This document shows, one piece after another, positions 3,637 through 9,782 of a stretch of DNA of 64,000 nucleotides (within the stretch, counting starts at the first letter, position 1; each line of letters opens with the position of its first letter). Source of the DNA: an uncultured Lachnoclostridium sp. GTDB lineage: Bacteria; Bacillota; Clostridia; Lachnospirales; Lachnospiraceae. The stretch covers positions 4,168 through 68,167 of the forward strand of contig CAMKRZ010000006.1 in NCBI GenBank assembly GCA_946415315.1. The letters are read 5' to 3'. The translations under genes were made by a program, and so were the position numbers. A model generated the notes under the pieces. It saw only the letters and a program-made list of their open reading frames with translations. It ran no database searches and had not been told where the DNA came from.

Positions 3637-4176
3637 TCAATCCTGATAGTCGAAGCCCATCTGGATCGCCTTCGCGTTGAGATCCTTGAGATCCTGATGA
3701 CGGGCGCTGACGATCTTCTCGATGATCTTGCCGATATTTTCCGTGGAGATGATACCGGTCTCCTTGATCATCTTGCCGACGAGGATCATGTTCGCGAGCG
3801 TGGGCATTCCGTTGTCCGCAGCGAGCTTGGTCGCCGGAACACCGTACGCCGTAACGTCGGTTCTCTCGATGGGACGCGTGATCAGCGTCGAATCATAGAA
3901 GATCTTGCCGCCGGGCACTACTGCCGGCTCATATTTGTCGAGGGACGGAAGGTTCATGACCACGAGGATGTCGGGGTTCGTAACAATCGGGGATCCGATG
4001 ATCTCATCGCTGAACACGACGCTGCAGCTCGCGGTACCGCCACGCATCTCAGGACCGTAGGAAGGAAGCCAGCTGACCTGCTTATCGGAGATCAGTCCGT
4101 CGTAAGCGCAGAATTTGCCGGAGAACAGAATACCCTGTCCGCCGAAGCCTGCAAAAAGCATACCGGTCTGTGCCAT
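3637..4176 (-). CDS. 2-oxoacid:ferredoxin oxidoreductase, gamma subunit
   Basis: [21 protein letters not shown]... is a typical OFOR gamma N-terminus. I chose the start at ATG 4176 because the longer track ORF (to 4308) overlaps the beta gene. It is the last gene of a delta-alpha-beta-gamma set. Confidence 0.9.
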
Positions 4177-4177
4177 A

Positions 4178-4936
4178 TTACTTGCCCTCCTTGTCTGCGT
4201 ATTTATCCTTGTACACGCCAAGCGGGTAGTAAGGAAGCATGTTCTCTTCAAGCCACTCCATCGCCTTCTCAGGCGTCTTGCCCCAGTTCGTCGGGCAGGT
4301 GGAGACAACCTCGATCAGCGAGAAGCCCTTGCCCTCGACCTGATTCTGGAATGCCTTCTTGATGGCCTTCTTCGCAGCCTTGACGTTCTTCACGTTGTTC
4401 ACCGCAACACGCTCCAGGTAGGACGGTCCCTCAAGCTGCGAGAGCATCTCACAGATGCGGACCGGATAACCTACGGTGTTGACGTCACGGCCGTAAGGAG
4501 ATGTCTGCGTCACCTGTCCCGGGAGGGAGGTAGGTGCCATCTGGCCGCCGGTCATGCCGTAGATCGCGTTGTTGATGAAAATGATCGTGATGTTCTCGTT
4601 GCGCGCTGCCGAATGAACGGTTTCAGCGGTACCGATGGAAGCAAGGTCGCCGTCACCCTGGTACGTGAAGACGATCTTCGAAGGATCGCTTCTCTTCACG
4701 CCGGTCGCAACCGCCGGAGCACGTCCGTGAGCGGCCTGAACCATATCACACTCAAAATAGTTGTAGGTAAATACGGAGCAGCCTACGCTGGCCACGCCGA
4801 TGGTCTTGCCTTCAATGCCGAGTTCGTCGATGGCTTCCGCCACGAGACGATGCACGATACCGTGCGTGCAGCCGGGGCAATAATGAAGCGGTACGTCGCA
4901 CAGCGACTTCGGTTTCTGGAATACGATCTCACCCAT
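4178..4936 (-). CDS. 2-oxoacid:ferredoxin oxidoreductase, beta (TPP-binding) subunit
   Basis: 252 aa with CPGCTHG near the N-terminus and a GDGD..NN..YGMTGGQ TPP-binding region. The gene is tightly packed with its neighbours. Confidence 0.92.
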   Translation of the reverse strand: MGEIVFQKPKSLCDVPLHYCPGCTHGIVHRLVAEAIDELGIEGKTIGVASVGCSVFTYNYFECDMVQAAHGRAPAVATGVKRSDPSKIVFTYQGDGDLASIGTAETVHSAARNENITIIFINNAIYGMTGGQMAPTSLPGQVTQTSPYGRDVNTVGYPVRICEMLSQLEGPSYLERVAVNNVKNVKAAKKAIKKAFQNQVEGKGFSLIEVVSTCPTNWGKTPEKAMEWLEENMLPYYPLGVYKDKYADKEGK

Positions 4937-6003
4937 TACTGCTCACCTCCTAACTTATTGGCCGCAAGGATCTGCTCGAGCACCTGCTCGGGAGTCGGGA
5001 TACAGCCGCCTACGCGGTTTGCCATGAGGATCGGTCTCTTGCAACGCGTTGCAAGCTCTACGTCCTCGACCATCTGACCCATGTTAAGCTCAACCGTAAC
5101 GAAGGACTTCACCTTGTCCGCAGCAGCGAGCAGCGGCTTCTTCGGGAACGGCCAGAGCGTGATCGGACGGATCATACCGACCTTGACGCCCTGCGCGCGA
5201 GCCGCCTTGATGGCGTTACGCGAAACGCGGGATGCGATACCGAATGCGACAACGCACACATCGGCGTCGTCCATCATGTACTCTTCCCACATGGGCTCAT
5301 TTTCCTCAATCGTAGCGTATCTCTTATAACGCTCGATGTTCCACTGCTCCAGCTCTTCCGGAAGCAGCGAAAGCGAGTTGATGATGTTGTGCTTTCTCTC
5401 GCAGTTCGTGCCGGTCAGCGCCCACGACTTGTCGTGATCCTCAACCGTGATGCCCTCGATGGAGACGGGCTCCATCATCTGCCCAAGAGTACCGTCGGCA
5501 AGGAGCATCGCCGGAACGCGATATTTCTCGGCTACGTTAAATGCGTGCGCCGTGAGGCTTACCATCTCCTGCACGCTCGCGGGAGCCACTACGAAGAGGT
5601 GATAGTCACCGTGTCCGCCGCCGCGCGTCGCCTGGAAATAGTCGGACTGGGACGGCTGGATACCGCCGAGGCCCGGGCCGCCGCGCTCCACGTTAACGAT
5701 GAGTGCCGGAAGGTCGCAGCCTGCCATGTAGCTGATGCCCTCTTCCTTCAGAGAGATTCCGGGGCTGCTGGAGCTCGTCATAACTCTCTTGCCGGTGGAA
5801 GCAACGCCGATGCACATGTTGATGGCAGCGATCTCGCTCTCCGCCTGAAGGAATGTTCCGCCGATTTTGGGCATGCGCTTTGCCATGTATGCCGCCACCT
5901 CGGTCTGGGGTGTGATCGGATAGCCGAAGTAGAATCTGCAGCCTGCCATAATGGCGGCTTCCGCGATCGCTTCGTTACCCTTCATCAAAACCTTGTCTGC
6001 CAT
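4936..6003 (-). CDS. 2-oxoacid:ferredoxin oxidoreductase, alpha subunit
   Basis: 355 aa starting MKGNEAIAEAAIMAGCRFYFGYPITPQTE, the conserved OFOR alpha N-terminus. There is a 1-nt overlap with the beta gene. Confidence 0.92.
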   Translation of the reverse strand: MADKVLMKGNEAIAEAAIMAGCRFYFGYPITPQTEVAAYMAKRMPKIGGTFLQAESEIAAINMCIGVASTGKRVMTSSSSPGISLKEEGISYMAGCDLPALIVNVERGGPGLGGIQPSQSDYFQATRGGGHGDYHLFVVAPASVQEMVSLTAHAFNVAEKYRVPAMLLADGTLGQMMEPVSIEGITVEDHDKSWALTGTNCERKHNIINSLSLLPEELEQWNIERYKRYATIEENEPMWEEYMMDDADVCVVAFGIASRVSRNAIKAARAQGVKVGMIRPITLWPFPKKPLLAAADKVKSFVTVELNMGQMVEDVELATRCKRPILMANRVGGCIPTPEQVLEQILAANKLGGEQ

Positions 6004-6007
6004 GTCC

Positions 6008-6217
6008 TTAACCCCTTTCTACCGTGATTACGCAATCCGGGCACATCGTCGCGCAAAATGCGCACGCGATGCATTGGGACTGGTCGACCATCTCTGCCGG
6101 ATGATGACCCTTCGCGTTGATGACCGTCTCGGACATCCGAAGAATCTTCTTCGGGCAGGCGGCAACGCAGAGTCCGCAGCCCTTGCAGAGATCCGTGTTG
6201 AATGTTACCTTGTTCAT
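6008..6217 (-). CDS. 2-oxoacid:ferredoxin oxidoreductase, delta subunit (2x[4Fe-4S] ferredoxin)
   Basis: 69 aa with two CxxCxxCxxxCP motifs (CKGCGLCVAACP and CIACAFCATMCP). Confidence 0.9.
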   Translation of the reverse strand: MNKVTFNTDLCKGCGLCVAACPKKILRMSETVINAKGHHPAEMVDQSQCIACAFCATMCPDCVITVERG

Positions 6218-6235
6218 ACAAAAACCTCCCTGTGC

Positions 6236-9254: not shown

Positions 9255-9330
9255 TGGGATTGTCCTCCTGTCATTAGTGAATGATGCAACACGGATTGCT
9301 TCGTTGCTACGCAACTCCCGCAATCCTGTG

Positions 9331-9385
9331 AACACTCGCAATCCGCTCAATTTGCCTGCGGCAAATTGAGCGGATTGCGAGTGTT
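9331..9385. repeat. Perfect 25-bp inverted repeat (hairpin) in the 5' UTR between the T-box terminator and the fusion gene
   Basis: AACACTCGCAATCCGCTCAATTTGC (9331..9355), ctgcg, then GCAAATTGAGCGGATTGCGAGTGTT (9361..9385). There is no U-tract on either strand. Confidence 0.85.
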
Positions 9386-9457
9386 CTTGCGCTCGGCGAT
9401 GTGTGCAGGCGAATCGTGCAAGCACGTTCGCCTGCGCATATCGCCTCACTGTTGCAT

Positions 9458-9725
9458 CAGAAAAGCTCGCCTCAAAGTTGCCTTTGAGACGAGCCATTAT
9501 AACCCGCGGTACCACTCAAATTGCGCTTTCGCGCCACTCAGGGACTCCATCAAGTCCGTTGCTCTCACGCGGCGTCACGGAATTCCTTACTGGCTGCGGC
9601 GCTCTAGCACCGAGGTTTCAGGTCTTCAGCTCGGAAGGGATGTGTCACTTGATGTTCTGCTGCCGGTTCACACCAACCACCGGCTCTCTGAAAGCTTCGA
9701 CATCGGACGGTCTTCGTCATCGCTT
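9458..9725 (-). promoter_or_regulatory. T-box leader (tRNA-sensing riboswitch) with intrinsic terminator
   Basis: Read on the minus strand. Elements: K-turn/GA motif GCGAUGACGAAG (9723..9712) with partner CUUCCGAGC; AG bulge AGAGAG (9689..9684); distal loop UGGUUGGUGUGAA (9679..9667); AGUAAGG (9591..9585) and CCGUGA (9580..9575), which are Stem II/F-box-like; T-box sequence GAGUGGUACCGCGG (9517..9504). The terminator is GCUCGUCUCAAAG-gcaa-CUUUGAGGCGAGC plus CUUUUCU (9494..9458). Confidence 0.85.
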
Positions 9726-9753
9726 TTACGCTTTATTCTGTTGAATTGTCCGC

Positions 9754-9782
9754 ATTGTAACGCTTTTCGAACGCATTGTCAA
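9754..9782 (-). promoter_or_regulatory. Sigma-70/SigA-type promoter feeding the T-box leader
   Basis: Minus strand TTGACA (9782..9777), 17-nt spacer, TACAAT (9759..9754). It lies about 25 nt upstream of the first T-box helix. Confidence 0.75.

Follow-up and report, generated by a model that had tools for sequence, protein, structure and literature searches.

In this study, we report the computational characterisation of a gene cluster on the minus strand of a 64,000-nucleotide (nt) stretch of DNA from an uncultured Lachnoclostridium sp. (GenBank assembly GCA_946415315.1, contig CAMKRZ010000006.1, positions 4,168 to 68,167). The window is this whole 64,000-nt stretch, and all coordinates given without a locus label are positions in it. 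The cluster consists of a T-box leader, a second structured RNA of the Clostridiales-1 family, and six genes, which encode a fusion protein with an acyl-coenzyme A (acyl-CoA) synthetase domain, a P-loop nucleoside triphosphatase (NTPase) and the four subunits of a 2-oxoacid:ferredoxin oxidoreductase (OFOR). It is probably an operon for the salvage of isoleucine (Ile) from a branched-chain acid. Its features, in the order of transcription, are as follows:

9754..9782, minus strand: sigma-70-type promoter, TTGACA (9782..9777), 17-nt spacer and TACAAT (9759..9754), agreeing with the consensus at 11 of 12 positions
9482..9729, minus strand: T-box leader (Rfam RF00230), predicted to be Ile-specific; covariance model, 92.6 bits
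9282..9459, minus strand: Clostridiales-1 RNA (RF01699), between the T-box terminator and the ribosome-binding site; 95.7 bits, full length
9264..9269, minus strand: ribosome-binding site AGGAGG, 9 nt upstream of the ATG at 9254, found in the sequence and unpaired in the minimum-energy fold of the leader
6987..9254, minus strand: fusion protein of 755 amino acids (aa), XRE-type helix-turn-helix (HTH) plus cupin (residues about 1-200) plus AMP-forming medium-chain acyl-CoA synthetase (about 230-755); Pfam HTH_31, Cupin_2, AMP-binding and AMP-binding_C
6236..6910, minus strand: SIMIBI-class P-loop NTPase of CbiA/ParA type, 224 aa; weak Pfam CbiA/ParA matches
6008..6217, minus strand: OFOR delta subunit, 2x[4Fe-4S] ferredoxin-like, 69 aa; Pfam Fer4 families
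4936..6003, minus strand: OFOR alpha subunit, 355 aa; Pfam POR_N and PFOR_II
4178..4936, minus strand: OFOR beta subunit, thiamine pyrophosphate (TPP)-binding, 252 aa; Pfam TPP_enzyme_C
3637..4176, minus strand: OFOR gamma subunit, 179 aa; Pfam POR, 2.6e-33
3463..3511, minus strand: intrinsic terminator closing the operon, GGCACGGCGCCGG...CCGGUGCCGUGC then UUUGUUUUU; -33.8 kcal/mol, z -4.09

The TTGACA-17-TACAAT promoter was the sole promoter-like site in a scan of 3300..10000, and in orthologous loci the T-box is likewise preceded directly by a promoter of comparable strength. The gaps between the six genes measure 76, 18 and 4 nt, followed by two overlapping or adjacent junctions, and no terminator-like site was seen when the coding strand was scanned between them. 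At the distal end, none of the shuffled sequences folded as well as the terminator at 3511..3463, which is flanked by a run of A and is possibly bidirectional. The genes flanking the operon, encoding a DHHW protein, an MBOAT acyltransferase and a sigma factor, are unrelated to it. The T-box and the Clostridiales-1 RNA, 22 nt apart, were the only Rfam matches at E <= 0.001 in the 64-kb window, where no tRNA genes were found. From its sequence, the gene string is predicted to be one operon of six genes under a single transcription-attenuating T-box reading tRNA-Ile. The promoter, T-box leader, gene string and end terminator proposed in the initial annotation of this DNA were all recovered at the same coordinates by promoter, Rfam, Pfam/NCBIfam and folding scans.

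The T-box had been recognised in the initial annotation from its motifs, and the RF00230 covariance model matched the region with an E value of about 1e-20. All 219 of the 219 model positions were aligned (92.6 bits), at E 8.6e-21 in a 901-nt search and 6e-19 in the whole 64-kb window, and the leader of one orthologous locus (L001) scored 91.9 bits on the same model. The specifier stretch GAACAUCAAGUGACACAUCC occupies exactly 9657..9638, and the initial annotation had been unable to choose within it between Ile, valine (Val) and histidine (His) codons. The covariance model placed AUC at 9641..9639, directly upstream of the CUUC strand that pairs with GAAG; the base that follows AUC is a C, after which the CUUC strand begins. 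The first copy of the duplicated ACAUC (9655..9651) belongs, as its 3' strand, to the helix that stands above the specifier loop, and pairs there with GAUGU at 9704..9700. When the leaders preceding orthologous synthetases were compared, as the initial annotation had advised, a T-box with AUC at the codon columns recurred in 75 of 76, with drift in the adjoining loop bases. The candidates GUG (Val) and CAC (His) were rejected, being off the codon position of the model and unconserved among the orthologues. Because AUC stands at the codon position of the model and is kept in 75 of 76 orthologous leaders, the specifier is read as AUC (Ile), which settles the earlier ambiguity.

The bulge UGGU (9514..9511) lies within the conserved T-box sequence AAUUUGAGUGGUACCGCGGG (9520..9501). 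UGGU was present in every related leader in which the bulge was aligned, as expected for tRNAs with A73, the class to which the initial annotation had assigned it. The leader terminator (9495..9464) has a stem of 14 bp and then UUUUCU. The 5' strand of this terminator, CUCGUCUCAAAG, is also the 3' strand of the antiterminator in the RF00230 alignment, so the two structures compete. With the Ile-class T-boxes located upstream of ileS and ilv genes in Firmicutes, this leader shares a full Stem I with the GA/K-turn motif, the AUC specifier loop, the distal motifs AGAGA and GGUUGGUG, the T-box sequence AAUUUGAGUGGUACCGCG, and an antiterminator and terminator that are mutually exclusive. It differs from them in having a C and not a purine after the codon, in lacking the AGUA half of the specifier-loop S-turn in its model alignment, in the 178 nt of foreign RNA that follow its terminator, and in its targets, which are an acid-CoA ligase and a ferredoxin oxidoreductase and not an aminoacyl-tRNA synthetase, a standard biosynthetic enzyme or a transporter.

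According to the proposed mechanism, when tRNA-Ile is charged the terminator at 9495..9464 would form and transcription would stop. Uncharged tRNA-Ile would pair through its anticodon GAU with AUC and through its free NCCA end with UGGU. Binding of the tRNA would then stabilise the antiterminator and allow RNA polymerase to read through into the six genes.

The catalytic domain of the fusion protein scored 212 bits with Pfam AMP-binding and 77 bits with AMP-binding_C and is assigned, by homology, to the ANL superfamily as one of the medium-chain acyl-CoA synthetases of the MacsMa/ACSM type. Its closest solved relative is MacsMa of Methanosarcina acetivorans (PDB 3ETC), with which residues 230-753 aligned end-to-end at 616 bits and about 52% identity, including the DSGWGK stretch and a Trp equivalent to the Trp reported as critical. 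MacsMa adenylates acids from C3 to C8, propionate included, and prefers 2-methylbutyrate, completing CoA ligation with that acid (PMC10455477). The best NCBIfam model for the protein was MbcS (NF047394), at 429.8 bits against a cut-off of 850, which indicates a relative and not an equivalog. MbcS of Staphylococcus aureus is a 2-methylbutyrate/isobutyrate ligase that prefers 2-methylbutyrate (PMC10026030); its role is in lipid synthesis, whereas the role proposed for the window protein is in amino-acid synthesis.

An XRE-HTH plus cupin module of about 225 aa, absent from MacsMa and MbcS, forms the N-terminal part of the window protein. The first 190 residues show a weak likeness to PuuR-type regulators (1Y9Q, E 2.7e-5; PuuR model, 16 bits) and share with such HTH_3-plus-cupin proteins, of which PDB 1Y9Q is an example, the two-domain layout. 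In the window protein, unlike these regulators, the module is fused to an enzyme and is at most a putative DNA-binding domain. Inspection of the sequences near the promoters of 45 orthologous loci revealed no operator-like conserved repeat; the promoter alone was common to them.

At least 591 genes related to that of the fusion protein were found in GTDB species genomes, and 80 loci were fetched for comparison, in which T-boxes were located by nhmmer with the T-box of the window and synteny was mapped. These loci derive from rumen and gut Lachnospiraceae, Ruminococcus, Oscillospiraceae and Acutalibacteraceae, and a T-box precedes almost every synthetase copy in them. About 54 of the 80 have two switches and two synthetases, in the order Ile T-box, first synthetase, Val T-box, second synthetase, NTPase and OFOR delta, alpha, beta and gamma; they fall among loci L004 to L079 (for example L020 7722-18094 and L019 1449-9911). 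Ten of the 80, the nearest Lachnospiraceae relatives of the window among them, have the single-synthetase form, with the first synthetase and one T-box. The codon of the second T-box was GUA in 42 of the 54 loci, GUC in three and GUU in one; the remaining eight were misaligned at the codon, and at least three of these read GUA by eye. In one locus (L023) the Val T-box stands directly upstream of the NTPase gene, without a second synthetase.

For 114 of the 115 synthetases, the nearest neighbour in another locus belonged to the same specifier class, and the mean identity of the catalytic domains was 76% within a class and 72% between classes. By this comparison of sequences, the two synthetases belong to different orthologous groups, and membership of a group goes with the specifier. 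A sole column was at least 90% conserved within each class and yet differed between them, with Gly in the Ile class, in MacsMa and in the window, and Ala in the Val class. It lies in the motif D-S/T-G-W-[G/A]-K (DTGWGK in the window), at position 278 of the 3ETC chain in alignment numbering. This column would align with Val310/Ile312 of acetyl-CoA synthetases, a residue of the acyl pocket. If that mapping is true, the extra methyl on the Val-type enzyme would match an acid one carbon smaller, and the Gly/Ala position is a candidate one-residue specificity switch. On the grounds of the relationship to MacsMa, the Ile T-box and the Gly/Ala difference between the paralogues, we propose that the synthetase of the window is a 2-methylbutyrate--CoA ligase.

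Some of the related loci have a further T-box nearby, with the leucine (Leu) codon CUC (L020 3486-7657, L019 10051-11716, L031, L064, L025 and L004). In L019 and L020, the two loci whose downstream genes were examined, it precedes a LeuA-like gene (HMGL plus LeuA_dimer), which in L020 is followed by a gene for an 825-aa fusion of a xylose-isomerase-like TIM barrel and an AMP-binding enzyme. A stand-alone TIM-barrel gene of the same family as the L020 fusion was seen just upstream of the operon in L203.

All four OFOR subunits exceeded the Pfam cut-offs and their genes are adjacent or overlapping; judged by these domains, the enzyme is a 2-oxoacid:ferredoxin oxidoreductase of the four-subunit type. 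The alpha subunit passed the NCBIfam model NF005507, 'VorB', with 532.6 bits against a cut-off of 399. With the 'VorB' family and the KorAB/OorDABC clade, as with Pfor4 of Clostridium thermocellum, which we liken to it by gene order, the enzyme shares the delta-alpha-beta-gamma arrangement, a TPP-binding beta subunit and a 2x[4Fe-4S] delta subunit. Pfor4 (Clo1313_1353-1356) is a four-subunit OFOR acting on branched-chain 2-oxoacids; the formation of branched-chain fatty acids depends on it, and its annotation is that of a ketoisovalerate enzyme (PMC13011478). In contrast to these enzymes, the OFOR of the window is proposed to work reductively, and its genes are predicted to share a transcript, governed by a T-box, with those of a ligase and an NTPase. 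Its substrate is not fixed by homology, because the nearest structures are those of 2-oxoglutarate or unspecified 2-oxoacid enzymes; a specificity for branched-chain 2-oxoacids and a reductive direction are inferred from its operon partners and regulation.

The NTPase has the Walker A motif GHYGSGKT and weak Pfam matches to CbiA, ParA and SRP54. Its AlphaFold model (pLDDT 80.6) retrieved SRP54/FtsY NG domains as all of the top 50 Foldseek matches (TM 0.52-0.63), and the modelled fold is that of the SIMIBI class (MinD/ParA/SRP54 group), with generic neighbours. A NifH/Mrp-type Fe-S ATPase or reductase activator was considered and rejected, since the protein has no Cys in 224 aa and the alignment has no conserved Cys column. 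More than 8000 homologues exist, all unnamed or 'hypothetical'. Almost all related loci that extend far enough keep the gene in its position between synthetase and OFOR, and the protein stands as an uncharacterised accessory between ligase and OFOR.

Taken together, we consider it likely that the operon provides an Ile-starvation-induced salvage route under a tRNA-Ile T-box, leading from 2-methylbutyrate through its acyl-CoA and 2-oxo-3-methylvalerate to Ile. The AMP-forming synthetase would make 2-methylbutyryl-CoA from 2-methylbutyrate, the OFOR would carboxylate it reductively to 2-oxo-3-methylvalerate with reduced ferredoxin and CO2, and a branched-chain aminotransferase encoded elsewhere would convert this oxoacid to Ile. 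2-Methylbutyrate is abundant in the rumen, and AMP-forming ligases run one way, towards acyl-CoA. Rumen Ruminococcus and their relatives require or use branched-chain volatile acids, which they carboxylate to branched-chain amino acids, and the classical labelling work of Allison, Bryant and Robinson is reported to have shown that rumen anaerobes carboxylate branched-chain volatile fatty acids reductively, giving Val, Ile and Leu. The chemistry proposed here, from acid to acyl-CoA, 2-oxoacid and amino acid, is the same, and habitat and taxa match; that work, however, was biochemistry without genes or regulation, whereas the route proposed here rests on genes and regulation. The metabolic role is inferred from the logic of the starvation switch, the one-way ligases, the pairing of Ile and Val paralogues and the relationship to MacsMa. 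Induction by a scarcity of Ile is what would be expected of a route producing Ile, and not of one consuming it. Such a salvage route had been put forward in the initial annotation, and it gains support from three independent sides, at the level of sequence: from the paralogue with a Val T-box, the 2-methylbutyrate preference of MacsMa and the passing of the 'VorB' model by the alpha subunit.

Several observations weigh against this interpretation. The T-box, at 92.6 bits, falls 0.4 bit short of the Rfam gathering score of 93, and a default Rfam scan at gathering scores listed the Clostridiales-1 RNA and omitted the T-box, which an E-value scan recovered. The base after the specifier codon is C where a purine is usual, with C, A or G among the orthologues. 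No aminotransferase is encoded within the operon. In the loci with two T-boxes the OFOR genes lie downstream of the Val T-box, so that their expression under Ile limitation alone would need read-through or a further promoter. As regards the OFOR itself, 'VorB' is an annotation name and not a tested specificity, and the models that fit the other subunits best are of the Kor/Oor type and all below their cut-offs: OGOR_delta and PorD_KorD for delta, KorB/OorB-type models for beta and PRK08537 for gamma. The solved structures nearest to the alpha subunit (1YD7, 8YS5 and 6N2N) are of the Pyrococcus furiosus 2-ketoacid enzyme and of 2-oxoglutarate enzymes, and Pfor4 works physiologically in the oxidative direction (PMC13011478).

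Two other products of the same genes were weighed against the 2-methylbutyrate route. With the same T-box and enzymes, propionate could be activated to propionyl-CoA and this carboxylated reductively to 2-oxobutyrate, which would reach Ile by the ordinary ilv pathway; methanogens and some anaerobes make 2-oxobutyrate from propionate. An Ile T-box would suit this route equally, and the substrate range of the OFOR, as homology leaves it, would allow it. The parallel paralogue with a Val T-box argues, however, for one acid per amino acid, and the smaller Gly in the Ile type, if its assumed position in the pocket is right, contradicts a C3 versus C4 pair of acids and matches a C5 versus C4 pair. 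MacsMa adenylates propionate along with other acids up to C8, but among the acids discussed it finishes CoA ligation only with 2-methylbutyrate (PMC10455477), and overall we regard salvage from propionate as quite improbable.

The other possibility is that 2-methylbutyryl-CoA, obtained from external acid by the synthetase and from the oxoacid by an oxidative OFOR, serves as a primer for anteiso branched-chain fatty acids. We judge this highly improbable. Uncharged tRNA-Ile would then induce a drain on the Ile precursor during a shortage of Ile, and the paralogous synthetases, with their matching Ile and Val T-boxes, connect the genes with the charging of tRNA and not with membrane composition; we know of no T-box that controls lipid genes. 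In favour of a lipid role, MbcS of S. aureus has exactly this function (PMC10026030; PMC11167679), and C. thermocellum needs Pfor4, whose genes stand in the same order, for its branched-chain fatty acids (PMC13011478).

The initial annotation had also pointed to a highly structured RNA of about 200 nt that separates the T-box terminator from the first gene. This RNA is real (-123 kcal/mol, z -13.9) and corresponds to Clostridiales-1 (RF01699), which matched 9459..9282 over model positions 1-166 with 95.7 bits against a gathering score of 48. It starts right after the U run of the terminator and stops 12 nt short of the ribosome-binding site, which the fold leaves free. In common with the motif described by Weinberg et al. 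in 2010 (PMC2864571), it has the closing stem and three hairpins, the GCUUGC loop and the GGAUUGCGGGAG...CG.AGCAAUCC hairpin. The family was listed as not cis-regulatory; the window copy sits in a T-box leader. Its score is low for the family, as 34 of 42 rescanned copies reached 110-146 bits. The arms of hairpin 2 (9335-9390) are an exact 26-nt inverted repeat, forming a 27-bp duplex in the fold, and lack the conserved internal loops (AUGAG.A.G.AG opposite CGGA.U.CGAAU). The AUGAG motif, kept by 119 of 122 family members and by L203 and L205, is missing from the copy in the window. (Quasi)palindrome correction at the DNA level would explain the inverted repeat, and this perfect duplex in the 5' untranslated region (UTR) would be a plausible substrate of RNase III.

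No copy of Clostridiales-1 was found in the 80 orthologous loci (2.3 Mb) with a single-sequence nhmmer search and a hidden Markov model (HMM) of 100 family sequences, and this absence rules out the element as a conserved part of the leader. The distance from T-box to start codon is usually 72 nt, compared with 228 nt in the window. In L007, whose T-box is nearly identical and whose protein is 98% identical, an unrelated 59-nt spacer replaces the element. Close strains are polymorphic: L203 and L204 match the window, L205 to L209 have the element together with the L007-like spacer, and L007 is without it (window 9282-9459, L007 7903-8000, L203 1786-1962 and L205 1892-2068 were compared). The form in the window and L203 looks like the result of a later deletion of a 90-nt spacer between two CAGGAGG repeats. 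The leader of L001, a 92%-identical relative, has at 7690-7990 a different multi-hairpin insert of about 300 nt with a 15-bp closing stem and no significant Rfam match. The spacer between synthetase and NTPase, 76 nt in the window, extends to 244-405 nt in L001 (10356-10530) and L203 (4258-4500), where partial Clostridiales-1-like modules were seen, namely a long hairpin, whose loop reads GUGCUUGCAC, together with one or two hairpins of the type CAUGAGCAA...UGCGAAUG (Rfam 22 bits).

The behaviour of the family was examined in 122 further copies (L081 to L202) from metagenomes and viral contigs. All 42 rescanned copies, from 40 loci, were genuine Rfam matches (62-146 bits). The copies occupy 79 distinct contexts; those at least 95% identical to one another are spread over as many as 12 contexts whose flanks are unrelated, and 122 of 164 near-identical pairs share neither flank. 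The downstream gene lies on the opposite strand in 24 of 78 cases, and four loci (L200, L124, L202 and L109) contain two copies each. A gene-specific association was discarded after Pfam searches of 28 upstream and 41 downstream neighbours gave no recurring family, and an origin from phages or plasmids was likewise discarded, with no blastn match in either collection and only two matches to viral contigs. From this distribution, Clostridiales-1 behaves as a dispersed, possibly mobile repeat, a behaviour not noted in its original description (PMC2864571). A search for literature on the motif beyond the 2010 discovery paper returned only an unrelated 2026 metagenomics preprint naming it.

Clostridiales-1 was also found directly behind three other, unrelated T-boxes, that is in three of the 79 contexts in addition to the lineage of the window. 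An Ile (AUC) T-box followed by the element precedes a tripartite ATP-independent periplasmic (TRAP) transporter (DctP/Q/M) in L113 (6318-7941) and also in L165, L171 and L185; this Ile-controlled transporter may import a branched acid or oxoacid. A Trp T-box (UGG, with a UGGC bulge) and the element precede the gene for 3-deoxy-D-arabino-heptulosonate 7-phosphate (DAHP) synthase in L191 (982-1373), where one structure serves both as T-box terminator and as hairpin 1 of Clostridiales-1, and both Rfam models pass threshold. The third is a Cys T-box (UGC, with a UGGA bulge) in L189 (about 13000-13494). As a rough estimate, 1-1.5% of intergenic regions in Clostridia hold a T-box, which three of 79 exceeds; the recurrence could reflect an insertion preference or a function. 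By inspection, translation-related, highly transcribed contexts also seem common. Copies were seen 6 nt past the 3' end of 23S rRNA, 12-22 nt upstream of tRNA genes, in an rpsL-rpsG spacer (L177 286-1055, L131 1785-2047, L093 3419-3663 and L152 908-1065 are among such translation-related copies), and a few bases from the stop codons of three genes, two of them argS by Pfam (L154, L188 and L197).

Most likely, Clostridiales-1 is a passenger in this 5' UTR, having landed or been retained behind the terminator in this lineage. The alternative is that it works as a second leader element on read-through transcripts, for processing, stability or protein binding, and so makes the leader a composite regulator. 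This agrees with the retention of the tandem in several strain lineages (L203/204 and L205 to L209), with the three unrelated T-boxes that it follows elsewhere and with the partial modules in the synthetase-NTPase spacers of L001 and L203. We nevertheless find it unlikely, given that the element is missing from the 80 orthologous loci, L007 with its nearly identical leader included, that copies at least 95% identical sit in up to 12 unrelated contexts with heterogeneous flanks, and that no other riboswitch class was found by Rfam upstream of it in 40 distinct contexts. Within the window, no terminator follows the element, the ribosome-binding site is not sequestered and hairpin 2 has lost its internal loops. 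A broader possibility, to which we give similarly little credence, is that Clostridiales-1 is a structured and mobile module, that it colonises spacers which are transcribed but untranslated, and that it has a cis function there at the RNA level, such as that of a processing or stability signal. If this were true, the T-box and Clostridiales-1 leader would be a composite regulator of two modules and not a switch carrying a passenger.

T-boxes, Macs-type ligases, OFORs and the Clostridiales-1 motif are individually already known. What appears to be new is the salvage regulon labelled for Ile and Val, its breadth, the candidate specificity residue and the population behaviour of Clostridiales-1. 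Full-text literature searches and one survey of T-box regulons revealed no description of the operon or its regulation, and no paper was found that links the rumen carboxylation pathway to these genes or their regulation; most subscription journals, RegPrecise and TBDB lay outside this coverage, so that a prior annotation is possible. For Clostridiales-1, an orphan RNA since 2010, the present data give a first population-level description, as a dispersed element that is polymorphic for presence and absence and recurs behind T-boxes.

For the operon, the T-box specifiers act as built-in labels, which tag one paralogue for Ile and the other for Val, both feeding one OFOR, and the T-box regulon would be extended to a salvage route of ligase and oxidoreductase. 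The genes are candidates for a pathway known biochemically since the 1960s, by which rumen and gut Clostridia carboxylate isobutyrate, 2-methylbutyrate and isovalerate, acids that they need or use, into branched-chain amino acids. With at least 591 relatives in GTDB species genomes, they form a concrete and widely distributed set that is open to cloning, assay and deletion, and that offers a genomic marker of dependence on branched-chain volatile fatty acids, of relevance to ruminant feed supplementation and to cross-feeding in the human gut.

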